A stretch of 64,000 bases of DNA from Verrucomicrobiota bacterium (GTDB lineage Bacteria > Verrucomicrobiota > Verrucomicrobiia > Limisphaerales > VHCN01). The stretch is from contig VHCN01000005.1 in assembly GCA_016871675.1 (NCBI GenBank), positions 384 to 64,383 of the forward strand, given 5' to 3'. The translations under genes were made by a program, and so were the position numbers. The notes beneath the pieces are model-generated. The model searched no databases, had not been told where the DNA came from, and was given only the letters and a program-made list of their open reading frames with translations. Shown piece after piece: positions 26,710 to 53,775 of this stretch (the first letter of the stretch is position 1; each line of letters begins with the position of its first letter).

Positions 26710-26832
26710 GGCGGAGCGTTCCCACACTGTCGCGTGAGCGCGGCGGCGAGGCAAGGGGAAGAACGACCACGCTTCGATCCCCGTGAGCAGTCAACGCTAG
26801 ACTTCCCGGACCGTGTTCTTCACTCTCGGTCC

Positions 26833-33911: not shown

Positions 33912-33932
33912 GCCGTGTTGATTCGTCACTGC

Positions 33933-34904: not shown

Positions 34905-34957
34905 ACTCCGACCCGACGCCAATCCCCAAATCACCGCACCAACCCAAGGACACTGAA

Positions 34958-36070: not shown

Positions 36071-36598
36071 TCACGGCTGCGCGACGGCGAGGATGCTGGT
36101 CGTGGAGTGCGTGAGGCGGTTCTGGCGGTCGCGGTGGCGGGCGAGGAGTGTGATGCGCCCGCCCGCGGGTTTGTCCGCGCCCCAACGCAGGAGGAACTCG
36201 TAGGCCGTGCCAAGCGTGGATTGGGATTGGTGCGCCCGGAGGTCCGCCGCGGAGAACGTCCACAGCTTGCGCGGCTTGGACGGCAGCGGGGCACCCTCCC
36301 GGATTGCGCCGTCGAACATCAGGATTTCCAAATCGCCCGCCGGCAGGACCGACCCCTTCGAACTTCGCGCCGTGGTCGCGAAGACCCTCAACGCAAACCC
36401 ATCGGGCCCCGGGTCATCGTCGAGGTTGATCGCCGCGGGCGAGTGCAGCAGGTGCAGCGCGAGGCTCTCGCCGGAACGGGCGCCACCGCCCGTCGCGCAA
36501 CCCGCCAGCCACGCGCACAGAAACGCGCAAACGAACAGGCCGCACGTCACACTCAGCAGTTGTGACAATCGCAGGAGGATCTCGTGACGTAGGTTCAT
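36071..36598 (-). CDS. Small lipoprotein encoded directly downstream of the secretin (candidate pilotin/accessory protein)
   Basis: MNLRHEILLRLSQLLSVTCGLFVCAFLCAWLAGC has a canonical LAGC lipobox. About 150 mature residues. Starts 22 nt after the secretin stop on the same strand. No family recognised. Confidence 0.6.
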   Translation of the reverse strand: MNLRHEILLRLSQLLSVTCGLFVCAFLCAWLAGCATGGGARSGESLALHLLHSPAAINLDDDPGPDGFALRVFATTARSSKGSVLPAGDLEILMFDGAIREGAPLPSKPRKLWTFSAADLRAHQSQSTLGTAYEFLLRWGADKPAGGRITLLARHRDRQNRLTHSTTSILAVAQP

Positions 36599-36620: not shown

Positions 36621-39600
36621 TCACGGCTTCGTCTCCGGCTTGTCCTGCTTCGGCGCAGGGAAGAGCGGATCAAGCAGCCCCTTTTGCAAGGCGTCCGGCT
36701 TCTTCATTTCCTTGATCGTGGAGCGGTCGAGTTGCCGCCGGATCGAGCCATCGAGCGCGGAGCGCGCCGCCTCGTCGTCGGCGCCACCGAGCACCTGCGG
36801 CGTGAGCATGATGAGCAACTCGCGCCGTTCGGTCTTCTTTTTCGAGCTGCGGAAGACCGCGCCGAGATACGGAATGTCGCCGAGCAGCGGCACTTTCTTC
36901 CTGCGGATGTCGTCGCTGCTGCTGATGAGCCCGCCGATGACGACGGTCTGCCCGTCGGGCACGCTCACGGTGGTGCTCGCGCGGCGCTCATTGATGATCG
37001 GCACCGTGGCGTTCTGGTTGATCTCGACCGACGTGCTGCTGAGCGAGCTGTTTGTCGTGCCGACCTCGAGCTTCACGAAGCCGTCCGGCGCGATGCGCGG
37101 CGTGACCTGCAGATTCACGCCGACGTTTTCGTAACGGAAGGAGTTGATGGTGTCGCCGCGCTCGGTCACGCGGCTGTCCGTGATGAGCGGCACGCGCTGG
37201 CCGATGTTGATCGTTGCGGGCCGGTTGTCCGCCGTGAGCACTTGCGGGCGGCTCAAGACTTCGAGGCGCCCGTCGTCCTCCATCGCCTTCACGAGGAAGT
37301 TCAGGTCGCGCCCGGTGAGCAGACCCGAGTAGCCGCCGAACGTGGTCAGCAGCGCGGGTGGGACGCCGGCGAAGTCCGTGCCGGTGCCGATCGTGCGGCC
37401 GCCGCCGATGCCCTTGTTGTAATTCCACGAGATGCCGAGGTCTTTCGTGTTGTCGAGCGCGACCTCGGCGAGCAGCACCTGGATCAGCACCTGCGGTTGG
37501 GAACGATCGAGCTCCTCCACGAGGTTTCGCACGTGGTCGAAGAACCGCGGGCTCGCGGACAGCAGGATCGTGTTGCTGTTCGTCTCCGCGACAATCGAGA
37601 CCTCGCGGTCGAGCAGGCGCGAGGCGTTTGCCACGGCGTCGGGCCCGAGGATTTGTGTCACGCGCTGGCGTTCCTGGTCGAGGAAGGCGCGGATCGAAGT
37701 CGCGACATCGAGCGCCTGCGAATTCTTCAACCGGTGCAGCTCCGTCTTGCGGTCAATCGCCTCGCCCGTGTCGAGTGTCTCGATCACCTGCGCGACGAGC
37801 GCGATGTAGTGGTCCGTGCCGCCGACGAGCAGGCTGTTTGTGCGCGGGTCCACGCTCACGTTGAGCGCGCCCTGCTCCTCGGAGCCGAGGATGGCCGACG
37901 CGCCCTCGGACGCGCCTGATCCATCGGGTTTCACCAGCGTGTATTGAATCGTCCGCACGTTGCCGCCGGCGGTCGCGCCCGCGGGCGTCATGCGGAACAT
38001 GCTCATGAGAAGCTGCGCGCTTTGCGCGGCGTTGGCGTGCTTGAGCGTGAAGACGCGGATCTTTGCCTCGCGCGGCGAGCTGTTGTCGAGGCGCGAGATG
38101 ACCTGTTCGAGCAATCCCATGTAATCCACGGGACCGGACACGATGAGCGAGTTCATCCGCGGGTCGGGTGTGATCAGCACTGCCTCCTTCAGCGCGGCGG
38201 TCACCAGCTCCCGGCCGTCCAGAGTGCGGGTGATGAATTGCAGGACCGACTGCGCGTTCGGGTTTTGCTCGGTGAGCGGCGTGGGCTTCGTATTGAGCGC
38301 CGCGTTCAGCACGGTGGACAGCGCCTCGGCCCGCGCATACTTCAACGGCATCACGCGGATTTCACTGACACGCGCGACCTGGTCAGTGTCGAGTTTCTCC
38401 ACGACCGCGCGGATGCGCCGCACATCGGCCTCGCCGGCGCTGACGACCAGCGCGTTCACCCGCTCGTCCGCACTGACAACGATGGGCAGCGCGCCGGTGG
38501 TTTGCGTGCCTTCGCGATACAGGCCCTGCACGGTGGTCGCGACGCGGCGTGCGTCGGCCTTCTGCAGCGGGATGACCTGCACGGTGATGCCAAACTGCGC
38601 CTGCTCGGCGTCGAGGCGGTTGACGAGCGACTCGACCATTGCCATGTCCTCGACCACCGCGCCGACGATGAGCGCGTTGACCCACGCATCGGCGATGACC
38701 GTGATGGGATCGGGCGTCTCGCCACGCACGCGCGGCGGGCGGTTGGCGAAGAGCTTCGCAAGCGTGTCCTGCAACTTCACCGCCGTCGCCTGCTTGAGCT
38801 GGAAGACGCGGAAGTTCTGCCGCGCCTGCACGTCCTCGGCGTCGAGCTGTGGCACGATGCGGTCGAGAATGTCGAACGCCTCCTTGCCGCCGGTGACGAG
38901 CAGCGCGTTGAGGCGCGGGTCGGGGATGACCGCGACGGGTATGCTCCGGTCCTGCGCGTTGAGCGCGACGGTGTCGCCCGCGCGCTTTGCGGTGAAGAAC
39001 TGCGTGAGCACGGCCGCGAGGTTTGCGGCGCGCGCTCGTTCGAGGCGGTAGATCTTCATGCTGCCCGCGTCTGCGAGGTCCCGGGTGTCGAGCCTGGTGA
39101 TGACCTCCTTCACGATCGCGAGATGCTCCGGGCTGGCGGAGACGAACAGCGTGTTGCTGCGCGGGTCCACGGCGATGGCGAGCGCGTCGCGGCCGCCCGC
39201 GGGCGCCGGGCCGCCGACAAGCGGCCGTCCGGGCCGATACAATCCCTGCTGCACGAGCCCGCGCAGCATCGTCGCGACGCGCTGCGCGTCGGCGAACTTG
39301 AGCACGAAGGTCTCCATGACTCCAGCGGCGACGGTGGGCTCGACGTCGAGCCGCGTGAGCAGCTCGGTGATGAGGTCGAGGTTTTCCTTGTTCGCGGAGA
39401 CGATGAGCGAGTTGTTGAGGCCGTCGGTCTCGATTTTCACCTGCTCGGACGCCGACGGCTCGGCGCCCGGCAGCGCGCGGGCCTTGAGACGAGCGGCAAA
39501 GATGCTCTCCATCGTGGTTGCGACCTTCGCCGCGTCGTTGTGCTTGAGCGGAAGGACCGACAGCGTGAGCGCCGGGTTGTCGAGCGCGCGGTCGAGCTTC

Positions 39601-42600
39601 TTCACGAGGTCGTCAATCATCTCGTTATCCACGACGGCGGCGGAGATGAGCAGCGCGTTCACGCGCGCGTCGGGCACGATGACGGGCCTGGCCCGCTGCG
39701 TGTCGGGCGACTTCGCGGCGGCGTAGCGTTGCGTGAACAGGTTGTTAAGCGTCGTCGAGATCACGCGCGCGTCCGCGAATTGCAGCGGGACAAGCCGGAT
39801 GCGGCCGCTCAGCGCGGGCGCGGCGGTGTCGAGCTGCCGCACGAGGGATTGCACGAGGTCGAAACTGTCCTTGCCGCCGCCGATGAGCAGGCTGTTGCTG
39901 CGCGACTCGGGCACGATGAGCACGCGGAGCGACTCGGCCTGGCCGCGGCCGAGCGTGGTCTGCCGGGCGATCCGCGCGTCCATGAGCTTCTGAATGGTGG
40001 CCGCGAGTTCGACCGCGTCCGCGCTTGTGAGCGGAAGGATGCGGATGTCGCGCAGTTCGAGCGGGAGGGCCTTGTCGAGCTGGAGGAGCAGGCCCTCGAT
40101 CATCGCGAACGCCTTGTCGTTGCCGGAGACGACCATCGAGTTGCTGCGCTCGTCCACGGTGATGTTCGGCCGGTCCTCGTTGCGGACGCTGCCGGCGCGC
40201 GCGCCCGTGTGCAGGTCGTTGATGATCTTTTGGACCGTCGCCGCGTCCGAGTGCTGAAGCGGATAGATGCGCACGCGCGAAAGGCCCGAGGCGTCGGGGA
40301 TGTCGAGCTGTTTGATGACCTCCTCGATGAGCGGCAGGGCGTCCGTGCGCGCGGCGACGATGAGCACGTTCATCGTGTCGTCGGCCTGCATGACGAGCGC
40401 GGCGCGGGCCTTCGGCTGGTCGGTCGTGACGGGCCGGCCGTTCTCCATCGTGGTGCGAAGCCGGGTGACGAACGTGCTGATGCCCTCCGAGCCGGCGACC
40501 GGCGCGCCTTCCGCGAAGACGGCCTGCAACAGCGGAAGCAGTTTCGTCGCGGCGGCGTGCTTGAGCCGGAACAGTTTGACTTCCGTGAGAAACCGGCCGG
40601 TGGGCTTGTCCAGATCGGTGATGATGCGGCGCGCGAGGACGAGGGATTCCCGGCGGCCGCTGAGAATCATCGTGTTGAGTCGAGCGTCCACGGCGACGTT
40701 GAGCGGGCTGACGAGCGCCTTGCCCTGCTCGCCGTCGGGTTGCGCGGTGCCCGCGGGACCGGAGCCAAGCCGCACGCCCTGCGTGAACACGCTCGTGAGC
40801 GTCTGCGAAACGCTCGCGGCATCCGCGTGCTGGAGCGGGATGATCGCGACCTCCGCGGCGTCGGTGAGCGCGACCTTGTCGAGCATCTCGACCACGGCGG
40901 CGAGCGCGAGCAGGTTGTCCGGCGTCGAGGAGATCAGCAGCCGGTTGCCGCCGTTCTGCCCGGCGGCGGCGGGATCGGTCATGATGCGGATGGGCTTCGT
41001 GAGGTCGAGCAAGACCGCCGCGCCGTTCGTGTTCGTGACCTTCAACCGGCGCACCTGCTCCTGCAGTTCGCGCGCCTCCGGCGTGAGATCGTTGGTCGCG
41101 CCGAGCCGCAGCATGCTTTGCAGAACGGCGGCGAGTTGCGGCGCGTTGGCCTTCTGCAAGGTGAACACGCGCACCTCGGCCTCGCCGTGCTCCGTCGGCT
41201 GGTCGAGCGCGCGGATGAGTTTCTCGAGCTGGTCAATCATCGGCCCGCGCGCGAACACGAGCAGGCTCTTGAGCCGCGGGAACGCCGTGACCGTGAGCGC
41301 TTCGCCGGGGCGCACGAGGTTCAACTGCTGGGCCATCTGCTGCACGGCCGGCGCGACCTTCTCGGCGGGCGCGTTCGTGAGCGCGATGAGCCGGAAGTCG
41401 AGCTGCGCGCTCAAGCCCGCGGCGTCGAGCTGCTCGATGAGCGACTTCATCAGCAGGAAGTCCGTCGCCTTCGCGCGCACGATGATGCTCCGCGTGCGCG
41501 GCTCGGGCACGACCACCATCTTCGGCGCGGGCAGCACGACCGCGGGACGCGGCGCCTCGCCTGGACGTGGCGGCTCCGCGGGACGCGCCTGTGTTTCCGA
41601 GCGAAAGAGGTCGTTCAACGTGCGCGCCACGATGACCGGGTCCGCCTCCTTCAGCGGGAAGACGTGCAGCTCGGCATCGCCCGCGAGCCCCGACCACTGC
41701 AACTCGCTCAGGATGCGGTCAATGTTGTCGAGTTCCGCGGTCGGCCCGGCGAGGATGAGCGCGTTGGCGTCGCGGTCGACCGCGATGATGACCTCGCCCG
41801 GCGCGTTCGTGACGGCCGACGTGGTGTTCGTTCCCTGCGGTGGACGGGCCGCCTTCGGCGCGACGGGCAGCGGCGCAAGTTTCTCCACGATGCGGACCTG
41901 GCCCGCGTGCATCTGCGGGTAGATGTTCGTCAGCATCCGCGCCATCTGCTCGACGGGGACGCGGCCGAGCGTGCGCAGACGGACCTGCATGCTGTCGTCC
42001 TTGCCCGAGTCGTCGAGGCGCGTGATGAGGTCCTGAATTTGCGCCACGTCAGCCGCCTTCGCGATGACGGTGATGGAATTGGCCTGATAATCCGCCTCGA
42101 TGACCGGCTTCTCGCCCGCCGGACGGTCGGCATACACCGCGGTGAGCCGGTCGGCGACATCGACCGCCTTGGCCTTCCTCAGCCACGCGATGTGGACGTC
42201 GCGGTCGCCGCGCTCGGGCGCGGCGTCAAGCGTGGGAAGCAACTGCTCGATCAGCTTGAACTGCGCGGGCGTGGCGGAAACGATGAGGCTGTTCGCGCGC
42301 GGCATCACCGCGATGCTCACGCGGCCCCGCCTCGTCGTGGTCGTGCCGGCATCCGCTGGTGTCGCGCGCCGCACGCCGCGCCGGTCGAGCACGGACTCGA
42401 TCATCTGCTCGAGGACCGGAACGACTTCCTTCGCGTCGGACGTCTTGAGTTTGTAAACGCGCACTTCGATGTCACCGCCGCCGCCCGCGGCCGATTCGCC
42501 GTCGAGTTCGCGGATGAGCTTCAGCACCTCCTGCACGGAATCGGTCGGGCCGTTGAGCAGCACCGCGTTCGCGCCGGAGACGGGCGTGACGGTGACGCGC

Positions 42601-45600
42601 TTGAGCAACGGCTGCGCCTCGCGGCTGGCGATGGTCTTGGTCACCGCCTCGGCGAGCGCGACGGGCTCGGACTTCTTCAAGTGCACGGTCTGGATGACGG
42701 AGGACGAGTTCGTCTGCGGCAGGTCAAGCGTGCGGACGAGTTGCGAAATGCGCGTGAGCGTGTGGCCGGGGCCGTCCACGAGCAGCGTGCGGTCGTCGGG
42801 CGAGGCGCTCACGACGAGGCGCTGCCCGGAATCGCGGTTGGTGATCTGCGTCGCGAAGAGCTGCGTGACGACCTGCAGGATGGGCGCGGCGATGATGTTC
42901 GTGAGCGGGATGATGGTGAGCTGTCGTGGTCCCATCTCGGGCACGTCCTTCACCTGCTTGAGCGCCTCCTCGACGGCCTTCAACTGCGCGTCGGTCGCGG
43001 TGACGAGCAGCCGCGGGTTGCGGTCGTCGGTGAGCACGATCACGTTGGCGTCCGTCGCGAAGCCGCGTGATTTCAACTGGTCGAGCACGATCGCGCGGAT
43101 GTTGCGCGTCGTGTTCTCCGCGAGGCCCGCGGACAGGCCGAAGACGCGCATCTGCCGCGGCTCATGGGTGGAATTCGCCTCAAACTCCTCGATGATCTTC
43201 GCGGCGGCGGCGATGTCCCTCGGCTCGCCGACCACGGTGAGAAGCCGCGTGCGGTTGTCGGCGCCGACGGTGACGCGCGGGATGGTGCGGCCCACGGGCG
43301 TGACTGTCGCGAGCGCGGCGGACAGCACGCTGGCGACCTGCTCGGGTTCGGCGTTGGTGAGCTTGAAGATGCGCGTGCCGCCCGAGACGGCGTTGGCCTT
43401 GTCGAGTTTCCGGATGATGGTCTCGACGGCGTTCAACTCGTTGCTCGCGCCGGAGAGCACGATCCGGTTCGCGGCGACGTCCGCGAGGATCATCGCCGGC
43501 GACACGGGCGGTGCGGGGCGCGACTTGAGCTGTTCGTCGTATAGCGACTTCGCGGTGACCGTGAGCTCGGCGGCCTGCGCGGCGACGAGATCGAACACGC
43601 GCGTCTCAAGCGTCGCGAGGTCCGGCGCGGGCCGCCGCACCATGGCGATGATGGACTCGATTTCCTTCAAATGCGCCGGGCGTCCGGAGATGAGCAGGCG
43701 CGCGTTGTTCGTGTCGGTGAGGAACTGCGCGTCGGCCGGGTCGGAGGCGTCGCGGTCTTTCCAGCGTTCCTGATAGAGGTTCTGCGCGAGCGACAGGACC
43801 CGGCGCAATTCCGCGGGCTGTCCGAGCTCGAACACGCGCAACTCGCGCGCGGGCGCAGCGGCCGCGCTCTCCTGCAACGTGGCGAGAATCTGCTCCGCGG
43901 CCTTCAACTGCGCGTCGCTGCCGGCGAGGATGAGCTGGTTGCTCGCGGTGTCGTCGAGCAGGAGCAGCTCGCTCGTGCCGAGGTCGGGCTGGCTTTTCAC
44001 GCGGTCGGCGAAGAGCTGCCGCAGCTTCGCGGTCACGTCGCGCACCGCGCCCTGCTTGAGCGTGAGCACCTTCATCCTGCGTTCCGACTGCTCGGCGAGC
44101 GAGGAGTCGAGCTGCTCGATGATGAGCGAGATGCCCTGCAGTTCCTTTGGGTCGCCGGTGACGACGAGCGTGCGCGTCTTGGCGTCGGCGGTGACGGTCG
44201 CGCGCTTTTGCGGCTTGCCGAAGGCGTCGTAACGCACGAGCGCGGTGGTGAGAATCTCCGCGACCTTCGCGGGGTCGGCGGACTTGATGCGGAAGACGCG
44301 CGCGGTCGAGCTCTGCGCGCTGGTTTTGTCGAGCTTGGTGACGATGCCCTCGATGACGGCCAGCTCGTTCGTGTCGCCGACGACGATGAGCCGGTTGCCG
44401 CCGGCGTCGGCGGTGATGAGCGTGTCGGGCGCGACGTTGCCGAACCGCGCCTTCGACTGCTCGGTGTAAAGCGTCTTCACCGTGACCGCGAGCTCGACCG
44501 CGCTCGCGGTGGTGAGGTCGAAGATGCGTGTGTCGCGCGACGCGCCGCCAAGCGGTTTCGCGTTCGCAGCGCCAAGTTGCGCGAGGATCGCCTCGATTTG
44601 CTTCAAGTGTTCAGGCCGGCCGGTGACGATGAGCCGGCCGCGCACGGCGTCGGAGAGAATCTGCGCGTCGGCCGGGTCGCCTTCGCCGCGCTCCTTCCAC
44701 TGGTCGGTGTAAAGCTGCTGCACGAGCGGCTGCAAGCGCTGCACGTCCGCGGCGTTGCCGACCTCGAAGGACTTCGTCTCGCGCGCCGCGGGCGTCGTCG
44801 CGGCGGGTTGCAGGCCGGCGATGAGTTCCTCGATCACCTTGAGATGGTCCGCCCGCGCGGACACGACGACGCGGCCGGTTTTGCCGTCGGAAATCATCTG
44901 CGCGTCGGCCGCCCCGGCGGTCGGGTTGCTGGCGAACTTGTCCTGATACAACTGCTTCAACAGCGGCAGCACGCGGTTCGCCTCGGCGAGCCGGCCAAGA
45001 TCGAACACCTTCACCTCGCGCGCGGCGGGAGGCTGCGCCTCGAGCGATGTGACGATCTGCCGGACCGCGGCGACCTGGTCCTGCGTGCCGAAGACCATGA
45101 TGCGCGAGCCGCTCGCGTCGGGATAAAGGCTCGCGGCCTTGCCCGCGCGGCCGGCGGTCTGCTCGGAGTAGATGCGCGTGACGCTGGGAAGCAGGTCGGC
45201 GGCGCGCGCGTTCTTCAACTCGATCGCGGCGAGCTCGCGCTGCGACTGGTCGGGCTTGCTGTCGAGCGTGACGATCACCGCCTCGATCTGCGGCAGCAGC
45301 GTGTCCGGCGCGAGGACGATGATCCGTTTGCCGTTCGGCTCGGCGCTGATGCTGACGAGGTTCGTGATGGCGCGGCCGGGCGTCTGCGCGGTGAAGATGC
45401 GCGTGGCGAGCGCGGCGAGTCCGTCGGGGTCGGCGCTCCGGACCTCGATGAGCTTGAACTGGCGGGGCTTCTCGAACGCGGTCAGGTCCACGCCCTCGTT
45501 GTCGAGGCGCGAGATGATCGTCTCGGCGTCCTTCAAGTCCGTGCGCGACCCGGAGACGACGAGCGTGTTTGACTCGGCGTCGGCGGTGACGGATACGCGG

Positions 45601-48473
45601 CGGATGGGCTGGTTGCGCGCGTCGAAGCGCAGCATCGCGTTCGAGACGACGCCGACGATCTTCGTCGCGACGGCGTTGTTGAGCTTGATGACCTTCGCGC
45701 CGCCCGCGCCCTCGGGCGCCTGGTCGAGCTGCTCGATGATGGTGTTGAGCGCGAGCAGCTCGTTGCGCGGGCCGGAGAGGATGAGGCGGTTCGCGGCGGC
45801 GTCGGGGATCATCCTCACCGACGGCGAATACTCGGGGCCGCGCTGGCTCTTGAGCAGCTCGGTCACGAGCGGCATCGCGAGCCCGGCGATGACGGTCGCA
45901 TCGCCCTGCTTCAGTTCCATCACGCGCATCTCGCGCGGTTGCACGTCGGACGGCGTGTCGAGCTGCGCGATGATCTTCGACGCGGCCTCGACCGCGTCGG
46001 CGTCGCCGCTGAGCACGAGGCTGTTGCTGCGCGCGTCCACGAGCACCTTCACCGGCTGGCCCTGCACGGAGAGGCTCTTCTCGACGAGTGTCGCGAGCTC
46101 GGCGGCGAGCGCGGCCTTCAGCCGCACCACGCGCGTCTCCTCGCGCGCGGGCCGGCGGCCGGCCGGGTCGAGCTGGCGGATGATCGCCTCGACGCGCGCG
46201 ATCTCGGCGTCCGCGCCGCTGACCATGATGCGGTTGTTTTTCGCGTCGGGAAGCAGCGTGGCCGCACCGCCCGGCGGCTCGCTCAATCCCTTGATCTGCT
46301 CCGCGTAGAGCTGTGTGACGAGCGGCGACAGCTCGGCGGCGGTGCGGCTGTGCAGGTCCACCGCCTTGAACTGCCGCGCGATGTTCTGCGTGGTGGCGAC
46401 GTCGAGCTGCTGGATGAACTCGCGCACGCGCGGCATGTCCTTCGCGGTGGCGAGCACGATGATCTGCTTGCCGCTCGCGTCGGGAACGAGCTTGGGTTCG
46501 GTCTGCGGGCTGCCGGGTTCGCCGAGTTGCGCCATGAGCTGCGTGGCGAGCGTGATGATTTCCGCGGGTGACTTCGAGCGCACGGGCATGACGGTCATCT
46601 CGCGCCGCTGCTGCGCGGGCGCGACGTCCACCACGGCGACGATCTGCTCGATCTCGCGCAACTGTTCCTCCGTGGCCGTGACGAGCACGCGGTTGTTCGC
46701 GGCGTCCTGAATCACCGACGGCTTGGGCTGTTCCTCGAATCGCTTGTCCGTCATCCGCTCGGTGACGAGGCTGGTGAAGCTGGTGAAGGCCGTGTCGAGT
46801 TTTGCGTTCTTGAAGCTGATGATCTGCAGGCGCCGCAGCATCGGGCCGGGGCGCTGCACGCGCAGCTCCTTCACGATGCCCTCGATCATCTTCAAGTGCT
46901 CGTCGCTGCCGGTGACGATGAGCCGGCCCGTCTCCGGCTCGGGCAGCATGCGCGCGTGCGCCACGGAACCTGTGAGCGCGTCGGTCGCCTGCCCGCGGTA
47001 AATCTGCTCGATGAGCGGCAGCAGCCGCTTGGACTCGGACGGGCTGCCGAGGTCAATGAAGCGCGTCTGCTGCGGGCGCGGCGTGCTGCTGCCGGTCTCG
47101 AGTTGCGTGAGGATGTCCGTCGCCATCTGGAGGTCCGCGGGGGAGCCGGTGATGATGACGCTCTGGCTGCGCGGCTCCACGGTGATGTTCGCGGTCTGGA
47201 CTGCCGCGCCCGACGGCGTGCGGCGTGTGAAGGCTTCGCGGAAGATGTTCGCAACGTTGGTCGCCTCGGCGGTGCGCGTGCGGAACACCTTCGTGACCTG
47301 CACGGTGTCGGCGCGCAGCGGGCGCAGGGTGGTTCCGTGAACGGGTTTGTCGAGCCGGTTGATGAGTTGCTCAATCTGGTCCGCCTGCCCCGCGAGCGGC
47401 GCCGCGACAATGAGGCGGCCCGTCGCCGTGTCCGCGATGACACGGGCCTTTGTGGCGGCGGAGGCCGCGGTTTCCTTTTCGCCCGCGACACCGGGCACGG
47501 CCTGACGGATCATCGCGGCGAGTTCCTCGGCCTTCATCAACTGGGGCGTGTAGATGCGCACGTCGCCGGAGCCGCCTTCCTTGTCCTCAAAGCGCGCGAC
47601 AAGCTGGTCGGCGAGCTGCAGACGTTCGTTTGGCCCGAAGAGCACGAGTGTGCGCGACGCGTCGTCATACACCGCGGTCACGTAATCGCCCGGGTCGGGC
47701 GGCAGCACGTCGAGCGCCTTGGTGTTGGTGTTGAAGGAGGTGCGCTTCGGCGCGGTGGCCACACCGAACGTGCGGTTGATGAGGTCGGCGACGACCGCGC
47801 CTGACGCGTGCAACAGCGTGTAGGTCTTCATCTGCCGTTCCGCCACGGACTCCGAATCCACCGCAGCGATGAGCGTGCGGATGCGGTGGATGTTTGCCAT
47901 GCGGTCCGTGACGATCAGCCCGCGCCCGCGTGAGAGCGGCGCGACTGAGCCCGCGGTGGAGAGGAGGTTCGTGAGTGACTGCGCGATTTCCTTCGCGTCC
48001 ATGCTCTTCAAGTCGAGCACGACGGTGACGACCTCGCCGGGACGCACGTCCGCCGCGCGCTCCGAGCCGCGCAGAATGCGGAGCGGGAGCTGCGGCAGTT
48101 CCTTGAACGGGACGAGCCGCAGGTAGTTGCCGTCCTCGACGAGCATCATGGACTTCATCGAAAGGATGACGTTGAGCGTGTCGAGCGCCTCGGCATAGTT
48201 GTAGGGCTTGGGGTCGTTGAATGTGAGCGTGCCCTCGATCTTCATCGCATCCGCGACGAGCGGGCGGCTGGCCATCTGCGCGAACCGTTCGAGCACGTCG
48301 GCGTAAGGAATGCCGTCGAACTGAAAGCGGATGTTGCGCGAGGCGTCCTGCGGCGGCGCGATGGTGACGGACTTGGCCGGTGGGGCGCCGGGCTTTGGCG
48401 CGGGCTGGTTCTGGGCGGGCGCGCTCGCGAGCGGCAGCAGCAAGGCGACTAGCAGGCAGTGGATGCGTTTCAT
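36621..48473 (-). CDS. gspD: Giant type II secretion system secretin (GspD family), 3,950 aa
   Basis: Signal peptide (MKRIHCLLVALLLPLASAPAQ). N0-like domain (IRFQFDGIPYADVLERFAQ...GNYLRLVP). About 43 secretin-N modules. Canonical C-terminal secretin domain (QVLIQVLLAEV, LSRPQVLTADNRPATINIGQRVP, VPDGQTVVIGGL, VPLLGDIPYLGAVF, RRELLIMLTPQVL). One uninterrupted ORF, last large gene of a gsp operon. Confidence 0.95.
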   Translation of the reverse strand: MKRIHCLLVALLLPLASAPAQNQPAPKPGAPPAKSVTIAPPQDASRNIRFQFDGIPYADVLERFAQMASRPLVADAMKIEGTLTFNDPKPYNYAEALDTLNVILSMKSMMLVEDGNYLRLVPFKELPQLPLRILRGSERAADVRPGEVVTVVLDLKSMDAKEIAQSLTNLLSTAGSVAPLSRGRGLIVTDRMANIHRIRTLIAAVDSESVAERQMKTYTLLHASGAVVADLINRTFGVATAPKRTSFNTNTKALDVLPPDPGDYVTAVYDDASRTLVLFGPNERLQLADQLVARFEDKEGGSGDVRIYTPQLMKAEELAAMIRQAVPGVAGEKETAASAATKARVIADTATGRLIVAAPLAGQADQIEQLINRLDKPVHGTTLRPLRADTVQVTKVFRTRTAEATNVANIFREAFTRRTPSGAAVQTANITVEPRSQSVIITGSPADLQMATDILTQLETGSSTPRPQQTRFIDLGSPSESKRLLPLIEQIYRGQATDALTGSVAHARMLPEPETGRLIVTGSDEHLKMIEGIVKELRVQRPGPMLRRLQIISFKNAKLDTAFTSFTSLVTERMTDKRFEEQPKPSVIQDAANNRVLVTATEEQLREIEQIVAVVDVAPAQQRREMTVMPVRSKSPAEIITLATQLMAQLGEPGSPQTEPKLVPDASGKQIIVLATAKDMPRVREFIQQLDVATTQNIARQFKAVDLHSRTAAELSPLVTQLYAEQIKGLSEPPGGAATLLPDAKNNRIMVSGADAEIARVEAIIRQLDPAGRRPAREETRVVRLKAALAAELATLVEKSLSVQGQPVKVLVDARSNSLVLSGDADAVEAASKIIAQLDTPSDVQPREMRVMELKQGDATVIAGLAMPLVTELLKSQRGPEYSPSVRMIPDAAANRLILSGPRNELLALNTIIEQLDQAPEGAGGAKVIKLNNAVATKIVGVVSNAMLRFDARNQPIRRVSVTADAESNTLVVSGSRTDLKDAETIISRLDNEGVDLTAFEKPRQFKLIEVRSADPDGLAALATRIFTAQTPGRAITNLVSISAEPNGKRIIVLAPDTLLPQIEAVIVTLDSKPDQSQRELAAIELKNARAADLLPSVTRIYSEQTAGRAGKAASLYPDASGSRIMVFGTQDQVAAVRQIVTSLEAQPPAAREVKVFDLGRLAEANRVLPLLKQLYQDKFASNPTAGAADAQMISDGKTGRVVVSARADHLKVIEELIAGLQPAATTPAARETKSFEVGNAADVQRLQPLVQQLYTDQWKERGEGDPADAQILSDAVRGRLIVTGRPEHLKQIEAILAQLGAANAKPLGGASRDTRIFDLTTASAVELAVTVKTLYTEQSKARFGNVAPDTLITADAGGNRLIVVGDTNELAVIEGIVTKLDKTSAQSSTARVFRIKSADPAKVAEILTTALVRYDAFGKPQKRATVTADAKTRTLVVTGDPKELQGISLIIEQLDSSLAEQSERRMKVLTLKQGAVRDVTAKLRQLFADRVKSQPDLGTSELLLLDDTASNQLILAGSDAQLKAAEQILATLQESAAAAPARELRVFELGQPAELRRVLSLAQNLYQERWKDRDASDPADAQFLTDTNNARLLISGRPAHLKEIESIIAMVRRPAPDLATLETRVFDLVAAQAAELTVTAKSLYDEQLKSRPAPPVSPAMILADVAANRIVLSGASNELNAVETIIRKLDKANAVSGGTRIFKLTNAEPEQVASVLSAALATVTPVGRTIPRVTVGADNRTRLLTVVGEPRDIAAAAKIIEEFEANSTHEPRQMRVFGLSAGLAENTTRNIRAIVLDQLKSRGFATDANVIVLTDDRNPRLLVTATDAQLKAVEEALKQVKDVPEMGPRQLTIIPLTNIIAAPILQVVTQLFATQITNRDSGQRLVVSASPDDRTLLVDGPGHTLTRISQLVRTLDLPQTNSSSVIQTVHLKKSEPVALAEAVTKTIASREAQPLLKRVTVTPVSGANAVLLNGPTDSVQEVLKLIRELDGESAAGGGGDIEVRVYKLKTSDAKEVVPVLEQMIESVLDRRGVRRATPADAGTTTTRRGRVSIAVMPRANSLIVSATPAQFKLIEQLLPTLDAAPERGDRDVHIAWLRKAKAVDVADRLTAVYADRPAGEKPVIEADYQANSITVIAKAADVAQIQDLITRLDDSGKDDSMQVRLRTLGRVPVEQMARMLTNIYPQMHAGQVRIVEKLAPLPVAPKAARPPQGTNTTSAVTNAPGEVIIAVDRDANALILAGPTAELDNIDRILSELQWSGLAGDAELHVFPLKEADPVIVARTLNDLFRSETQARPAEPPRPGEAPRPAVVLPAPKMVVVPEPRTRSIIVRAKATDFLLMKSLIEQLDAAGLSAQLDFRLIALTNAPAEKVAPAVQQMAQQLNLVRPGEALTVTAFPRLKSLLVFARGPMIDQLEKLIRALDQPTEHGEAEVRVFTLQKANAPQLAAVLQSMLRLGATNDLTPEARELQEQVRRLKVTNTNGAAVLLDLTKPIRIMTDPAAAGQNGGNRLLISSTPDNLLALAAVVEMLDKVALTDAAEVAIIPLQHADAASVSQTLTSVFTQGVRLGSGPAGTAQPDGEQGKALVSPLNVAVDARLNTMILSGRRESLVLARRIITDLDKPTGRFLTEVKLFRLKHAAATKLLPLLQAVFAEGAPVAGSEGISTFVTRLRTTMENGRPVTTDQPKARAALVMQADDTMNVLIVAARTDALPLIEEVIKQLDIPDASGLSRVRIYPLQHSDAATVQKIINDLHTGARAGSVRNEDRPNITVDERSNSMVVSGNDKAFAMIEGLLLQLDKALPLELRDIRILPLTSADAVELAATIQKLMDARIARQTTLGRGQAESLRVLIVPESRSNSLLIGGGKDSFDLVQSLVRQLDTAAPALSGRIRLVPLQFADARVISTTLNNLFTQRYAAAKSPDTQRARPVIVPDARVNALLISAAVVDNEMIDDLVKKLDRALDNPALTLSVLPLKHNDAAKVATTMESIFAARLKARALPGAEPSASEQVKIETDGLNNSLIVSANKENLDLITELLTRLDVEPTVAAGVMETFVLKFADAQRVATMLRGLVQQGLYRPGRPLVGGPAPAGGRDALAIAVDPRSNTLFVSASPEHLAIVKEVITRLDTRDLADAGSMKIYRLERARAANLAAVLTQFFTAKRAGDTVALNAQDRSIPVAVIPDPRLNALLVTGGKEAFDILDRIVPQLDAEDVQARQNFRVFQLKQATAVKLQDTLAKLFANRPPRVRGETPDPITVIADAWVNALIVGAVVEDMAMVESLVNRLDAEQAQFGITVQVIPLQKADARRVATTVQGLYREGTQTTGALPIVVSADERVNALVVSAGEADVRRIRAVVEKLDTDQVARVSEIRVMPLKYARAEALSTVLNAALNTKPTPLTEQNPNAQSVLQFITRTLDGRELVTAALKEAVLITPDPRMNSLIVSGPVDYMGLLEQVISRLDNSSPREAKIRVFTLKHANAAQSAQLLMSMFRMTPAGATAGGNVRTIQYTLVKPDGSGASEGASAILGSEEQGALNVSVDPRTNSLLVGGTDHYIALVAQVIETLDTGEAIDRKTELHRLKNSQALDVATSIRAFLDQERQRVTQILGPDAVANASRLLDREVSIVAETNSNTILLSASPRFFDHVRNLVEELDRSQPQVLIQVLLAEVALDNTKDLGISWNYNKGIGGGRTIGTGTDFAGVPPALLTTFGGYSGLLTGRDLNFLVKAMEDDGRLEVLSRPQVLTADNRPATINIGQRVPLITDSRVTERGDTINSFRYENVGVNLQVTPRIAPDGFVKLEVGTTNSSLSSTSVEINQNATVPIINERRASTTVSVPDGQTVVIGGLISSSDDIRRKKVPLLGDIPYLGAVFRSSKKKTERRELLIMLTPQVLGGADDEAARSALDGSIRRQLDRSTIKEMKKPDALQKGLLDPLFPAPKQDKPETKP
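37506..48035 (-). repeat. Coding array of ~43 tandem secretin-N (N1-N3 type) domain modules, 59-108 aa each
   Basis: Hand segmentation of aa ~148-3656. Each module follows beta (e.g. VFRLKHAAA), helix (LLPLLQAVF), beta (VxxDxRxNxLIVxG), helix (...IxxLIxxLD). Most units (about 30 of 43) end in L-D. Modules 1-22 are mostly of an 'LG..AE..LLPL..QLY' flavour. Modules 23-43 are mostly the classic 'xxPLxxxxA..V...L..LF' flavour. Confidence 0.85.
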
Positions 48474-48501: not shown

Positions 48502-49503
48502 TCACAACTTCATCAACTCTCCCGGGATCTGATCGGGCTTGAGTTTGTATCGGCTGGCAAGCGTCTGGCCGCGCTCGACGGCCCAGAATTCGTTGCCGAT
48601 CTTCACGATCACGCGGCTGTTTGAGAGGAGCGACTCGTTGCCCGGCATCGGCAACGGGCGATAATCCACCAGCACGATGCGGCCGCCCGCGAGCTGGTCG
48701 CCGGGCTGGAAGCGCAGCGTCTTCTGGTTCGACAGGTCGCGCACGTGGACCTCGGGCTTGCCCATCCACTCGGACAGCGACACGACGCGGAACGTCTCCG
48801 GTCCCGGCTCGGCGCCCGGCGGCCCGGCGGGTGTCGGCGACGGCGGCCCGGGCTCGGGCTTCGGCGGCGGCCGCTTCACATACGGCCGCAAAATGTCGCG
48901 CGTGACAAGCGCCGCATAGGCGCGCCGTTCGGGGCTTTCGGCGGTGAACTTGGATTCGAGATCCAGCGGCTGCGCCTCGGGTGCAGGTTCGAGCACGAGC
49001 GTGAGATAGCGGAAGCTCACGCGCACGCGCCCCGGCACGTCCGCCGCGGACACCACGAGGCTGTCGAGCCGGTGCAGCGGCGTGGACTTCTGGACCAGGA
49101 AGATGAGGTTTACGACCTGCGCCAGGCCGCCTTCGCCCCGGATGCTCCAGCCGATTTCCTGGGAGCCCCGAAGCTTGCGCGGGCCGACGGGAACGCGGCT
49201 GAAGTCCGCTTCGCGCAATCCGCTGTTGATGATGATGCGCGTGAGCATCTCGCCCGAGCGCGCGCTCGCGAGGTCGAGGTCGTCCGAAAAGCACCGCGCG
49301 GCGACACGCTTCATCGCATCCTCGGCGGTGAAATAATCGCGGCGCTCGGCATGAAGCTTCGCGAGCTTCTCGTGCACGCCGCCGATCCGGCCGTCGAGCG
49401 CGCGGAGCGGTTTGAGGAAAAACCCGCGCACGCCGGCGGTGACGGCAAATGCGCCGACGAGACCGACGACGGCGATGGCGAGTGTGCGTTCGCGCGCGTT
49501 CAC
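48502..49503 (-). CDS. Bitopic assembly-platform protein: GspM/PilO-like N-half, Pro-rich linker, PilP/GspC-like beta C-domain (tentative)
   Basis: N-terminal TM (TLAIAVVGLVGAFAVTAGV), a coiled segment (HEKLAKLHAERRDYF), an alpha/beta domain, a linker (KRPPPKPEPGPPSPTPAGPPGAEPGPE), then a beta-rich domain (FRVVSLSEWMGKPEVHVRDL...). GTG start overlaps the upstream stop (GTGA). Sits between the GspL-like gene and the secretin. Confidence 0.45.
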   Translation of the reverse strand: MNARERTLAIAVVGLVGAFAVTAGVRGFFLKPLRALDGRIGGVHEKLAKLHAERRDYFTAEDAMKRVAARCFSDDLDLASARSGEMLTRIIINSGLREADFSRVPVGPRKLRGSQEIGWSIRGEGGLAQVVNLIFLVQKSTPLHRLDSLVVSAADVPGRVRVSFRYLTLVLEPAPEAQPLDLESKFTAESPERRAYAALVTRDILRPYVKRPPPKPEPGPPSPTPAGPPGAEPGPETFRVVSLSEWMGKPEVHVRDLSNQKTLRFQPGDQLAGGRIVLVDYRPLPMPGNESLLSNSRVIVKIGNEFWAVERGQTLASRYKLKPDQIPGELMKL

Positions 49504-51128: not shown

Positions 51129-52541
51129 TCATATCTGAGGGCCGGGAGGCGTTGTGTGCAAGGACGCATTCCGCGGGGTTCGCGGCGCGGTCTTGAGGTC
51201 CGCCGAAGGCTCGCCGCCCGGTTCCAGCTTGAACGGCAGGCCGAGGCGTGTGACGTCGCGCAGGTAAAGCAGCGTGGGGTTGCCGCGGGCGGTGTCCACG
51301 ATCGCCTCGATCACCCGGTGGCGACCCGAGGGCACTCCGTAGCCGATGACGCGAAAGCTGAACTGAAATCCGCGCGAGGTAAGATACGGCGCGACGGCGC
51401 GGAACTTGTCCGCGTCGAGCACATGCTCCTGCACGAGCCATGCGAGGTTCTTCCGCCGGTCGGGAGACACGCTTTGTCGCGCGGACACGATGGCGTCGGC
51501 GAGCGCGTCGTCGAGGCCGGGCACGCACGCGAGCACGGCGCGGGATGCGGTGTTCACGTTGATGAGCCCCGCCAGCTCCGTGTCCGCAACCGTGGTGAAC
51601 AGGTCGAGCGCGAGCGGCAGCCCGTCGTTTGAGATGCCCGACGACAGCTCGACATCCACGCCGTTGGTGGTCCGCACCACTTGCTTCGCGTCGAGCAGGT
51701 CGCTCGCATAGGCAACCGGAATCTGGTTGCTCCGCAGCGCCGCCACATAGGCGAGCGTCGCGGCCGGCACGCCGTTCGTCGGAAAGTTCTCGGCGGGGTC
51801 GTTCAAGTTCCATCGCGGCGCGCCGTCGGTTCCGGTGTTCGGCTCGAACGATGAGACGGTGAGCAGCGGGCGGAGCGGCGAGGCGGGGCCGAAGTCCGCG
51901 GCGGGCGGGGCGTCGTCGGTGGCGGCGCTGCGATACGGATTCGCGGCTTCGCCGTAGAGCAGCGCGGGCGTGAAGCCGCGCACGAGCAGCAGTTCGTCCA
52001 CGGTGTCGAGCGGGCCGTTGCGGACGGCGTAGGGCTTCGCGAGCGTGTCGTAGTAAGGTTGCTCGGCGCCTTCGGGCAGCGGTGCGTCGTCGGCATCAAT
52101 GAAGTCGAGCAGCGCGTGCGAGAGCAGCGGCTTCATGCCGGGCAGTCGCGCAAGCATTTCCTCTGTCGCGTGGTTGAGGTTGAGCTTGCCCGCCTCGTCG
52201 GTGAGCCCGTAACGAAGCGTCATGCCGTCGTCGCCGGGCGAATAGACCGTGAAGTGCCAGCGGTCGGAACCGTCATCGAACACGAGGCGTTCGCGAAACA
52301 GGTCCGGCGAATCGAAGACGTCGGGATTCTCGGAACCGGTGGCCGCGACGCGCATCGCCTCGCGCACGCCGCTCATCGCCGCGGCCCAGGCCTGCTCCGC
52401 GCCGGAGCCAGCGGCGGTCGCGGTTTCTTCGGCCTTCATTCGAAACAGCAGGCTCATGGCGATCATCGCCGCCAGCATCACGACGATAAGAATCGCAATG
52501 AGGACGAATCCGCGCCTGCGGTTGGAGCAGTCGAAGTTCAT
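51129..52541 (-). CDS. gspK: Type II secretion minor pseudopilin GspK
   Basis: Prepilin-like N-terminus without Glu+5 (RRRGFVLIAILIVVMLAAM). Two helix-hairpin-helix-like segments (LNLNHATEEMLARLPGM; INVNTASRAVLACVPGLDDALADAIVSAR) are characteristic of GspK. Confidence 0.8.
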   Translation of the reverse strand: MNFDCSNRRRGFVLIAILIVVMLAAMIAMSLLFRMKAEETATAAGSGAEQAWAAAMSGVREAMRVAATGSENPDVFDSPDLFRERLVFDDGSDRWHFTVYSPGDDGMTLRYGLTDEAGKLNLNHATEEMLARLPGMKPLLSHALLDFIDADDAPLPEGAEQPYYDTLAKPYAVRNGPLDTVDELLLVRGFTPALLYGEAANPYRSAATDDAPPAADFGPASPLRPLLTVSSFEPNTGTDGAPRWNLNDPAENFPTNGVPAATLAYVAALRSNQIPVAYASDLLDAKQVVRTTNGVDVELSSGISNDGLPLALDLFTTVADTELAGLINVNTASRAVLACVPGLDDALADAIVSARQSVSPDRRKNLAWLVQEHVLDADKFRAVAPYLTSRGFQFSFRVIGYGVPSGRHRVIEAIVDTARGNPTLLYLRDVTRLGLPFKLEPGGEPSADLKTAPRTPRNASLHTTPPGPQI

Positions 52542-53311: not shown

Positions 53312-53775
53312 CGGGGTTGCCCTTCCCGCAGATTCGCCACTTCGCCGAGATCGAGCACTTGCGCGAGCCGATGCACAAGCGCGGATTCCGAGTGGCGGAT
53401 GACGACTTCGACGTTGGAGAAGCTCGCCGCGCCGGGCGCGGACTCGAGTCGGGTGGATGTGACCTGCCACGTCCAGTTGGTGAAAGGCGCGGGGAACGGC
53501 TCGGGCCCCGGCTGCTCAACCAAGCGCACGCCCATCTGCAATTCGGACATCACCGTCACCGCAAGGTCGGCCGCGTGGGCTTGCAGGCGGAGGCGCGCGG
53601 CGCTGTTCACCGAGGCGTTGAGCCCGCCGCCGATGATGACCGCGGCGGCGGCGAAGAGGACGAGGGCGAGGACGACTTCGAGAAGAACACCCGCGCGAAG
53701 GTGCTGCGGCTGCGCGGGCACAGCACGGCGGGAATTCCGCGCGCGCCATGAATGATGACGGGTGAGCATTCGCAT
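53308..53775 (-). CDS. gspI: Minor pseudopilin, GspI-like, with a degenerate prepilin motif
   Basis: LRAGVLLEVVLALVLFAAAAVII: a hydrophobic helix with Glu, but with G-V-L-L-E instead of G-F-T-L-x-E. About 150 aa. Position matches gspI. Confidence 0.5.
   Translation of the reverse strand: MRMLTRHHSWRARNSRRAVPAQPQHLRAGVLLEVVLALVLFAAAAVIIGGGLNASVNSAARLRLQAHAADLAVTVMSELQMGVRLVEQPGPEPFPAPFTNWTWQVTSTRLESAPGAASFSNVEVVIRHSESALVHRLAQVLDLGEVANLREGQPR

Follow-up and report, generated by a model that had tools for sequence, protein, structure and literature searches.

A giant predicted GspD secretin with 43 tandem N modules in a type II secretion operon of a Verrucomicrobiota bacterium

The window analyzed in this study is a stretch of 64,000 nucleotides from a Verrucomicrobiota bacterium (contig VHCN01000005.1). 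It carries an eleven-gene operon in the order gspE-F-G-H-I-J-K-L-M-D-lipoprotein, and the tenth gene is a giant gspD (Table 1). The core genes of a T2SS were recognized: E, F, G, H, and K were clear, I, J, and M were weak, and L was PilM-like. The inner-membrane platform proteins of the operon are of ordinary size. No family match to GspC was found among the operon genes with Pfam and NCBIfam, and none of the eleven genes encodes a PilT-type retraction ATPase. The GspI-like ORF, whose start codon is uncertain, overlaps with the gene that follows. The same operon arrangement surrounds a 4,527-aa giant secretin in the relative L084, on a contig of 9.18 Mb. This T2SS operon was absent from the original prediction for the locus, which had been made from the sequence alone.

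Several neighbors of the secretin gene deserve a closer description. According to its translation, the GspL/PilM-PilN-like protein has a TM segment and a periplasmic tail. The translation of the 333-aa bitopic protein contains a TM segment, a weak GspM-like region, a Pro-rich linker, and a C-terminal domain of about 100 aa. This protein has 590 homologs, and all 120 among the matches listed were 326-341 aa long. Its C-terminal domain could be an N0-binding stand-in for GspC; a profile comparison with the PDB and Pfam gave no match to a GspC-HR/PilP-like N0 binder. Gene calls on three independent contigs include the 175-aa lipoprotein, which belongs to no Pfam or NCBIfam family. It is a candidate pilotin, but only suggestively so, and the role is inferred.

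Table 1. Features of the giant gspD gene and its operon (positions in the window; all on the reverse strand).
Feature	Position	Strand	Basis or remark
GspE assembly ATPase	56362..58029	-	PF00437 E 4.6e-134, MshEN
GspF platform protein	55152..56357	-	PF00482, two copies
GspG major pseudopilin	54487..55077	-	PF08334 and N_methyl motif
GspH	53830..54477	-	PF12019
GspI-like minor pseudopilin	53308..53775	-	TIGR01707 E 0.0016, below cut-off
GspJ-like minor pseudopilin	52538..53470	-	Weak T2SSJ and GspJ matches
GspK minor pseudopilin	51129..52541	-	PF21687, PF03934
GspL/PilM-PilN-like inner-membrane platform protein, 539 aa	49500..51119	-	PF11104 PilM_2, TIGR01175
333-aa bitopic protein	48502..49503	-	Weak NF040576 GspM, E 1.3e-4, below cut-off
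Giant gspD, secretin ORF including stop codon	36621..48473	-	3,950 aa; ATG start
Signal peptide, ~aa 1-21, MKRIHCLLVALLLPLASAPAQ	48411..48473	-	From translation; cleavage site without tool prediction
N0 domain, ~aa 45-125	48099..48341	-	PF21305 weak; AF2 fold match clear
43 tandem Secretin_N modules M01-M43, aa 141-3656	37506..48053	-	Pfam, own HMM, and AF2
Module M41, aa 3363-3463	38085..38387	-	Best conserved; ~40-aa insertion in the alpha1-beta2 loop
Secretin pore domain (beta-barrel and gate), aa 3657-3895	36789..37505	-	PF00263, PDB and Foldseek matches
C-terminal helical tail, aa 3896-3950	36624..36788	-	AF2 helices after the barrel
175-aa lipoprotein directly downstream of giant gspD	36071..36598	-	Lipobox L-A-G-C

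The giant gspD was listed mechanically as a single ORF and translated without an internal stop over 3,950 codons. Given the composition, such a stop-free run has a chance probability of about 1e-37. The third-position GC of the gene is 0.92, which is typical of real genes in this window of 67% GC. The identical 3,950-aa protein was found on contigs of three independent metagenome assemblies, and relatives lie on long contigs, including the 9.18-Mb contig and a record titled as a complete chromosome of 7.9 Mb. The gene is without long DNA repeats; no repeat in it is more than about 80% identical or as long as 190 nt, and no relevant tandem repeats were found at the DNA level. Repeat-driven misassembly, gene fusion, and a shadow ORF were rejected on the basis of third-position GC, the independent assemblies, and the repeat analysis. 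The gene is real, intact, and under selection.

Both ends of the giant GspD are canonical, with signal peptide, N0, N1, and N2 at the N-terminus and an N3-like module, the barrel, and a helical tail at the C-terminus. The stretch between them contains about 39 additional ring-building N modules. The Pfam scan of the whole protein found Secretin_N (PF03958; 1123 bits, E=0) split over 36 stretches, together with a single Secretin domain (PF00263; aa 3730-3895, E 1.4e-51, 174.8 bits, cut-off 27.5). The N0 profile PF21305 matched weakly (E 0.0016, aa 59-119), and the same match is precomputed in most homologs. The AF2 model of the N-terminal part (pLDDT 82) matched XcpQ N0-N1-N2, ETEC GspD N0-N2, PulD, and the GspC-GspD complex 3oss. 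In the C-terminal model, helices follow the barrel at model residues 769-805. This tail is possibly an S-domain-like, pilotin-binding element, a function that is inferred only. The original prediction had read the locus as one uninterrupted ORF with a signal peptide and N0, 43 consecutive secretin-N modules, of which about 30 end in L-D, and one C-terminal secretin beta-domain. Each of these claims stood up to the profile check that it had proposed and to the further analyses given here, and all the motifs that it quoted are present in the translation.

The data indicate that the giant gspD product is the outer-membrane secretin (GspD) of a predicted T2SS, because Pfam and NCBIfam matches, PDB sequence and fold matches, and the gspE-M-type operon all point to it. 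Membership of the secretin superfamily is supported by both of its marks, the PF00263 barrel and Secretin_N domains N-terminal to the barrel. The N0 domain expected of a T2SS secretin is likewise present, on the strength of PF21305 and the fold match of the model. The best PDB sequence matches of the pore domain were PulD, XcpQ, and GspD. For the pore domain, Foldseek with the AF2 model returned 6hcg, 5zdh, and 5wq7 with E-values of about 1e-33 to 1e-31. The T3SS secretins InvG, MxiD, and EscC and the phage protein pIV were also among the Foldseek matches of the giant GspD. The GspD model TIGR02517 (cut-off 351.35) scored 1158.8 bits on the whole protein, a value inflated by 25 repeated stretches. 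It scored 276.5 bits on the C-terminal 487 aa alone and 116.1 bits on the N-terminal 460 aa alone (model positions 9-276); both scores are below the cut-off, and in both parts GspD was the best secretin subfamily. The PilQ model TIGR02515 reached 420 bits on the whole protein, again inflated by repeats, and 204.7 bits on the C-terminal part, under its cut-off of 284.35 and under GspD. A PilQ would be recognized by its score and a pilMNOPQ context, often along with AMIN domains. These marks are not met: the operon has T2SS pseudopilins, and the Pfam scan found no AMIN domain in the giant GspD. The definition of a canonical GspD, with N0-N1-N2-N3 and about 600-750 aa, is not met either, given 43 N modules and 3,950 aa.

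A repeat HMM, which matches the beta2-alpha2 core, was built iteratively from the giant GspD itself. It found 42 significant core copies (aa 261-3656), which make 43 together with the first module (aa 141-207). The modules are 67-108 aa long (median 79), and exactly 30 of the 43 end in L-D. In both AF2 models, every modelled module has the order E-H-E-E-H (beta-alpha-beta-beta-alpha), with linkers of 5-9 residues between modules. Loop insertions of 25-45 residues are conserved in M27, M28, M30, M32, M41, and M42. The paralogous modules are only about 21% identical to one another, and one old block duplication was found (M15-17 / M19-21, 38-47% identical). A recent repeat expansion was rejected on these two grounds. 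Across seven orthologs, the best match per module averaged 49-60% identity, and the matches were collinear for most modules. Positional orthologs were recognizable for every module, central ones included, at 34-70% identity. M41 was 63-86% identical to its positional orthologs (mean 78%), against about 55% on average for the family. Modules M30-M43, which form the C-terminal third of the array, were collinear in every ortholog compared. The center of the array (M18-M25) was the least conserved and was the site of the non-collinear matches, and the block M19-M22 was missing in one ortholog. Judged from these alignments, the position-specific conservation of the modules fits a defined quaternary structure better than an interchangeable spacer, because a spacer would more likely be homogenized or quickly turned over.

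The distribution of the giant architecture was surveyed in genomes and protein libraries. In the genome scan, an alignment query retrieved related loci and a single-sequence query retrieved none. All 80 related loci have a homologous coding region that either is at least 3,567 aa long or extends through the whole of the flank available; with a complete 10-kb flank, this amounts to at least 3,690 aa. The loci were mostly labelled Verrucomicrobiota (Limisphaerales, Pedosphaera), and other relatives were Phycisphaerae. A length survey had been proposed with the original prediction; it was run as an exhaustive representative search in a 50% identity library, in which the best 150 matches included 139 newly returned cluster representatives. 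Among these, 127 were longer than 2,000 aa and 64 longer than 4,000 aa, the longest having 5,532 aa; some of the representatives come from Phycisphaerae, and most of the 127 have a signal-like N-terminus. Module counting in distant relatives needed an HMM retrained on the family, since the first HMM undercounted. The module number was about 38 in one ortholog and ranged from about 20 to 56 or more across the family. A word-indexed search with C- and N-terminal pieces gave only proteins under 900 aa among the matches listed, mostly contig-end fragments, and no length distribution. Apparent relatives under about 1,400 aa were rejected as true short forms, since all begin inside a module and lack a signal peptide, which identifies them as fragments. 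The short genomic ORFs L005 and L058 were both frameshifted giants.

Going by these sequence comparisons, the giant architecture is the norm for a large Verrucomicrobiota/Planctomycetota family, in which 3,950 aa is typical. It had been presented at first as undescribed. Full-text searches of the literature found no description of a multi-thousand-residue secretin architecture, so that part of the claim stands; in sequence databases, however, the architecture is not rare. A preprint on Omnitrophota reports giant genes adjoining T2SS-like loci, and it was set aside as a prior description since other proteins are concerned. Short-read metagenomes systematically break giant gspD genes into pieces. 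The majority of entries in the databases are such 'partial' pieces with an ordinary GspD annotation, and the real size of the genes can easily go unnoticed as a result.

To our knowledge, all solved secretins are multimers of 12-15 copies in which each N module forms one ring. The explanation we put forward for the giant GspD is a stacked-ring conduit of this kind. It is inferred without a multimer model, and we consider the case for it as a whole to be evenly balanced. The carrier would be an uncultured member of the Verrucomicrobiota from fresh water, of the Limisphaerales/Pedosphaera kind, with a complete T2SS. Its giant GspD would assemble as a 12-15-mer with one ring per N module, and the stack of N0 and the 43 modules would be a hollow tube in the periplasm, roughly 130-190 nm long at about 3-4.5 nm per module, with a mass of ~6.3 MDa for a 15-mer. 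At one end of the tube would be the inner-membrane platform of normal size (GspE/F/L/M and the pseudopilins) and at the other the outer-membrane gate, and the tube would bridge the greatly enlarged periplasm ('paryphoplasm') between them. Such a periplasm is on record in this lineage and in Planctomycetes, and its width in the carrier itself is unknown. The pseudopilus would polymerize inside the tube and drive folded exoproteins out. N0 is assumed to dock at the inner membrane, with a platform of ordinary size and no GspC recognized. The module number would be a length-setting spacer, evolving through gain and loss of whole modules. The model also assumes a full-length, unprocessed protein of about 423 kDa, for which there is no expression or processing evidence.

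Several observations bear on this conduit. The ring-building fold predicted in every modelled module and the short linkers are consistent with stacked rings. The giant GspD retains N0 at the end away from the barrel; in the structures 3oss and 6hcg, this domain mediates docking to the inner-membrane platform. A paryphoplasm was seen by electron microscopy in strain Ellin514 of subdivision 3 (PMC2647929), and an enlarged periplasm is a recognized trait of Planctomycetota (PMC11131199). Against the tube, a length of about 150 nm would take up much of a small cell, and the pseudopilus would have to be about equally long. Since the module number varies among relatives, either matching envelope widths or a flexible structure is required. 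The tube may be several times longer than any known secretin. The stronger proposal is a continuous ringed tube across the envelope, with a length of ~150 nm and a mass of ~6 MDa, which would far exceed every other secretin channel in length and whose module count would serve as a genetically encoded ruler for the width of the periplasm in Verrucomicrobiota and Planctomycetota. We advance it tentatively, as a possibility that falls somewhat short of an even chance.

Ordered rings may also be limited to the modules nearest the outer membrane, roughly M40-M43. The rest would be a flexible or elastic chain, 12-15 per pore, that tethers the pore to a mobile, retracted cytoplasmic membrane or scaffolds periplasmic partners or substrates, and there would be no closed conduit. 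The uneven conservation described above suits this arrangement, with M30-M43 collinear throughout and a less conserved center that lacks M19-M22 in one ortholog, and so does the wide variation of module number in the family. N0-N2 are poorly ordered in many solved secretins, N0 being 'usually missing or disordered' (PMC5745081), and the periplasm width of these bacteria is described as variable (PMC11131199). However, every module keeps a positional ortholog at an identity far above that between paralogs, the linkers are as short as those between stacked N1, N2, and N3, and the retention of N0 implies that there is a specific partner at the end away from the pore. We consider the chain unlikely, and it cannot be dismissed.

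A second possibility is a non-linear packing of the modules, in which they are, for example, folded back, concentric, placed so that several from one chain share a wide ring, or wound into a helical wall. The complex would be far shorter than 43 stacked rings but of greater thickness or width, and an ordinary periplasm could accommodate it. With its low pTM of 0.37, the AF2 monomer gives no inter-module geometry, so the geometry is unmeasured; the inner-membrane platform is normal-sized, and the conserved loop insertions could mediate unusual contacts. But such a packing is without example among solved secretins, N domains stack axially in the best-matching structures (PMC5745081), and the short uniform linkers leave little room for hairpin turns. 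It seems doubtful.

The remaining alternative concerns only function: the machine would extrude a pilus or fibre, or take up material, as a system of the type IV filament kind, and the tube would guide a long filament. The PilM-like platform protein, which is not a classical GspL, and the good PilQ score of the C-terminal part agree with this, and the sole precedent for a long stack of rings, PilQ of Thermus, works in a pilus and DNA-uptake system. The GspD model nevertheless scores best at both ends (276.5 vs 204.7 bits at the C-terminus, 116 vs 56.5 bits at the N-terminus), and the operon has GspG, GspH, GspK, and weak GspI/J-like pseudopilins and no PilT-type ATPase. We regard this function as very doubtful. 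Finally, the idea that the ORF is an assembly repeat expansion, a gene fusion, or a decaying pseudogene found no support beyond the frameshifts in L005 and L058, and with the same product in three independent assemblies, short and diverged repeats, the high third-position GC, relatives on long contigs, and 127 distinct long cluster representatives against it, it is effectively refuted, with next to no probability left.

Few outer-membrane machines of bacteria have been studied as thoroughly as the secretins. The structural models that we know of all assume a handful of periplasmic rings. If the modules stack, a conserved and diverse family with 20 to more than 55 modules would challenge the assumed size limit of the channel and also the view of type II secretion as a piston that acts across a short periplasm; with a tube, the T2SS pseudopilus would operate across five times the distance known from model bacteria. 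The envelope architecture of these groups, paryphoplasm versus enlarged periplasm, has been debated for decades. Giant secretins are concentrated in these same groups, so protein length is a testable, sequence-encoded predictor of envelope geometry. If the tube and ruler reading were true, it would offer a direct molecular handle on the debated cell plan of Verrucomicrobiota and Planctomycetota.

The original prediction had also held that characterized secretins have far fewer ring domains, and we judged this comparison fair. Canonical GspD, PulD, and XcpQ (6hcg, 5wq7, 5wq8, 5wln; ~650 aa) are the best sequence and fold matches and share with the giant GspD the signal peptide, N0, N modules, an N3-like module at the barrel, a helical tail, and an operon context with gspE-M. 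In contrast, they have three N modules (N1-N3) rather than 43, and the giant GspD is six times longer. The giant operon also differs from a canonical T2SS in having no recognizable GspC, a PilM-like platform, and a family-specific 333-aa partner. Thermus thermophilus PilQ (757 aa) has six stacked rings, N0-N5, over ~35 nm, and its extra rings were interpreted as an adaptation to a wide periplasm (PMC5745081, PMC4463427). It likewise has extra beta-alpha-beta-beta-alpha N domains and is a small-scale precedent for the proposed giant tube. The differences are that it has six rings against about 44, serves a type IV pilus/DNA-uptake machine, has an unusual N0 fold, and has been studied experimentally, whereas the giant secretin family has not. 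InvG, MxiD, EscC, and pIV have the secretin barrel and the architecture of N0 and N-domain rings in common with the giant GspD. However, the T3SS secretins have only N0, N1, and N3-type domains, pIV has N0 and N3, and their gene context is unlike that of the giant GspD; the SctC model scored 164 bits on the C-terminal part, against 276.5 bits for GspD. The Amuc_1098-family secretin of Akkermansia (model length 805) comes from the same phylum and gave a weak barrel match (72.6 / 88.8 bits). That family is of normal size with a type IV pilus context, and the giant GspD, far under its 750-bit cut-off, is not a member.

The giant secretin is encoded by one open reading frame, and ORF listing and translation confirmed the original prediction that it is uninterrupted. 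The third-position GC of 0.92 is the signature of a real gene in sequence of 67% GC. At the composition of the window, the chance of 3,950 codons without a stop was approximately 1e-37. The exact 3,950-aa product was found on contigs of three assemblies made independently, two of them JGI metagenomes and the third from ENA. Internal DNA repeats of the gene were 25-190 nt long and just 60-80% identical, and Tandem Repeats Finder returned nothing relevant for the gene. Repeats this short and diverged provide no substrate for repeat-driven misassembly. Because three assemblies carry the same product and misassembly-prone repeats are absent, the reading of the ORF as an artefact or pseudogene was essentially excluded.

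Pfam Secretin_N (PF03958) matched the protein in 36 separate stretches (1123 bits) and Pfam Secretin (PF00263) matched it once, at aa 3730-3895, in agreement with the predicted array and single pore domain. A repeat HMM was built iteratively from the giant secretin itself and converged on the beta2-alpha2 core. Its significant matches numbered 42 (aa 261-3656) and, together with the first module (aa 141-207), gave 43 modules of 67-108 aa each (M01-M43, from the N-terminal end). L-D terminates 30 of them. The hand count of approximately 43 modules, about 30 ending in L-D, was thus borne out, and the earlier description of the protein was right in each detail checked. Identity between modules averaged 21% (maximum 47%), and the only visible block duplication, an old one, was M15-M17 versus M19-M21 (38-47% identity). 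M41 shared 63-86% identity (mean 78%) with its positional orthologs, against a family mean of approximately 55%, and carries an insertion of ~40 aa in the alpha1-beta2 loop. The length of the insertion-bearing modules M27, M28, M30, M32 and M42 was also kept in orthologs. The insertion-bearing modules may serve as additional gates or bind partners.

Both ends of the protein are those of a type II secretion system (T2SS) secretin. The GspD model of NCBIfam ranked first, and positions 9-276 of the GspD family model aligned to the N-terminal part. The AF2 model of aa 40-460 (pLDDT 82) matched N0-N1-N2 as crystallised for XcpQ and for ETEC GspD; it also matched PulD from the PulD-PulS-PulC complex, and the complex of GspC with GspD. 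The model of aa 3130-3950 (pLDDT 69) contained six consecutive E-H-E-E-H modules with linkers of 5-9 residues, and after them the secretin barrel and a tail of helices. It matched best to the T2SS secretins 6hcg, 5zdh, 6i1x, 5wq8 and 5wq7 (E ~1e-33 to 1e-31), and the PDB sequence alignments covered the last module, which is equivalent to N3, and the barrel. Without M03-M42, the giant secretin would be an ordinary GspD. The protein is a T2SS secretin whose ends are canonical and which has ~39 extra ring-building modules; each module is conserved individually, and the linkers that connect them are short.

In an operon of eleven genes, the giant secretin gene comes tenth. The inner-membrane components of the operon are of ordinary size, and the identical gene order surrounds a 4,527-aa relative on a 9.18-Mb contig. 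The 333-aa protein encoded immediately upstream had 590 homologs, and all 120 listed of these were 326-341 aa long, at ~57% identity. Its family is without a Pfam model, and searches gave no identification for its C-terminal domain; the protein is a candidate N0-docking partner. The 175-aa lipoprotein had no family match and could be the pilotin. No GspC was identified. A convergent pair of DUF4159 and MoxR-type AAA ATPase genes (BatA/aerotolerance-like) adjoins the operon, and these neighbours were present on all three independent contigs.

Positions in the window of the T2SS operon, the giant secretin and other features
Feature	Position	Strand	Remarks
GspE	56362-58029	-	
GspF	55152-56357	-	
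GspG	54487-55077	-	
GspH	53830-54477	-	
GspI-like ORF	53308-53775	-	weak
GspJ-like ORF	52538-53470	-	
GspK	51129-52541	-	
PilM/GspL-like bitopic protein	49500-51119	-	
333-aa bitopic protein	48502-49503	-	weak GspM-like N-terminal half, proline-rich linker, ~100-aa C-terminal domain
Giant secretin ORF	36621-48473	-	3,950 codons, ATG start
M15-M17 and M19-M21	43314-45823	-	block duplication
Module M41	38085-38387	-	aa 3363-3463; best conserved of 43
175-aa lipoprotein	36071-36598	-	lipobox LAGC; directly downstream of giant secretin
DUF4159 and MoxR-type pair	33915-36058	+	
Pup-ligase family protein	25309-26754	-	PF03136, E 2.5e-113
Ser/Thr protein kinase	1713-4736	-	1,007 aa

With each species represented by one genome, a scan gave 273 pore-domain relatives. 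The 80 best of them were retained, among them one from a record whose title gives a complete chromosome of 7.9 Mb. Most of the 80 loci were labelled Verrucomicrobiota-type (Limisphaerales, Pedosphaera, Verrucomicrobiales), and the labels of the remainder look wrong. Loci L003, L012, L023, L025, L029, L034, L040 and L058 had titles of Akkermansia muciniphila, Klebsiella, Methylomirabilota or Cyanophyceae. These contigs carry a verrucomicrobial giant secretin at ~60% identity, and mislabelling or contamination of metagenome bins in the public records is the probable explanation. In loci with 10 kb of upstream flank, the frame was open throughout (at least 3,690 aa), and in two loci the ORF had its start inside the flank, with a genuine signal peptide (3,606 and 3,567 aa). 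Only L005 (~5900-6580) and L058 (~2950-2970) appeared short; both are giants split by frameshifts, and sequencing error or pseudogene could not be decided. When each of the 43 modules was matched against seven orthologs, the best matches averaged 49-60% identity per ortholog, and most modules, including every one of M30-M43, matched in collinear order. The orthologs differed by whole-module indels. The M19-M22 block is absent from one of them (L049), which shows that array length changes in this way.

HMMER was run exhaustively against 1.84 billion cluster representatives and returned 45,182 secretin matches. Among the best 150, 139 representatives were newly returned, of which 127 exceeded 2,000 aa, 111 exceeded 3,000, 64 exceeded 4,000 and six exceeded 5,000 (longest 5,532 aa). 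These are counts and not frequencies, because repeated modules add score and so move long proteins up the ranking. Module count, determined with an HMM trained on the family, tracked length (r = 0.89, ~91 aa per module); among the listed relatives the mode was 30-45 and the maximum at least 56, and all those below ~1,400 aa were fragments beginning inside a module. Named members from Phycisphaerae/Phycisphaeraceae were 4,756-4,937 aa long. A word-indexed homolog search, by contrast with the more than 120 relatives of 2,000-5,500 aa found exhaustively, listed no protein above ~900 aa and also missed the window's own, so such giants are easily overlooked by it. The architecture proposed in the original prediction stands, but the gene is not singular: it typifies a large family found in Verrucomicrobiota and Planctomycetota.

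A full-text literature search, from which subscription journals were largely absent, found no paper on secretins of this kind, and within that coverage the claim that no such architecture had been described held. Public annotation names the giant proteins, mostly fragments, 'type II secretion system protein D' or 'secretin N-terminal domain-containing protein'. As far as can be told, they are known to databases but not to the searchable literature, and they would surprise specialists.

By inference from established secretin structures, the subunits would form a multimer of 12-15 copies with one ring per N domain. GspD takes ~3.3 nm per ring, and its N1-N3 ~10 nm. Among published secretins, Thermus thermophilus PilQ comes nearest (757 aa, six stacked rings, ~35 nm long; PMC5745081, PMC4463427); in PilQ, ~35 nm for the cone and six rings gives ~4 nm per ring (PMC4463427). 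N0 and 43 modules would make a tube roughly 130-190 nm long, and a 15-mer of the 423-kDa mature monomer would weigh ~6.3 MDa. Since N0 is kept at the far end, the simplest reading is a barrel anchored in the outer membrane with N0 on the inner-membrane platform, and the module array would span the space between. Lineages with giant secretins have an unusually large space to span: Ellin514 (subdivision 3, Pedosphaera) showed a ribosome-free paryphoplasm in high-pressure-freezing electron microscopy (PMC2647929), and Planctomycetota are known for their enlarged periplasm (PMC11131199). Without a multimer model, we give a stacked-ring trans-periplasmic tube anchored at both ends an even chance. 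It is weakened by the AF2 pTM of 0.37, the unidentified GspC and the varying module number among relatives, and would need a pseudopilus of ~150 nm.

It is possible, if unlikely, that the array is mostly a flexible tether or scaffold in which only membrane-proximal modules are ordered; a compact, non-linear packing of the modules is doubtful. Guiding of a filament instead of protein secretion, a question of function orthogonal to these, seems still more improbable; the C-terminal 487 aa alone scored 276.5 bits for GspD, 204.7 for PilQ and 164.1 for SctC. Through the giant secretin, the long-standing envelope question of these bacteria becomes directly testable.

Elsewhere in the window, a Pup-ligase family protein was observed in this Verrucomicrobiota genome, together with a Ser/Thr protein kinase with leucine-rich repeats.
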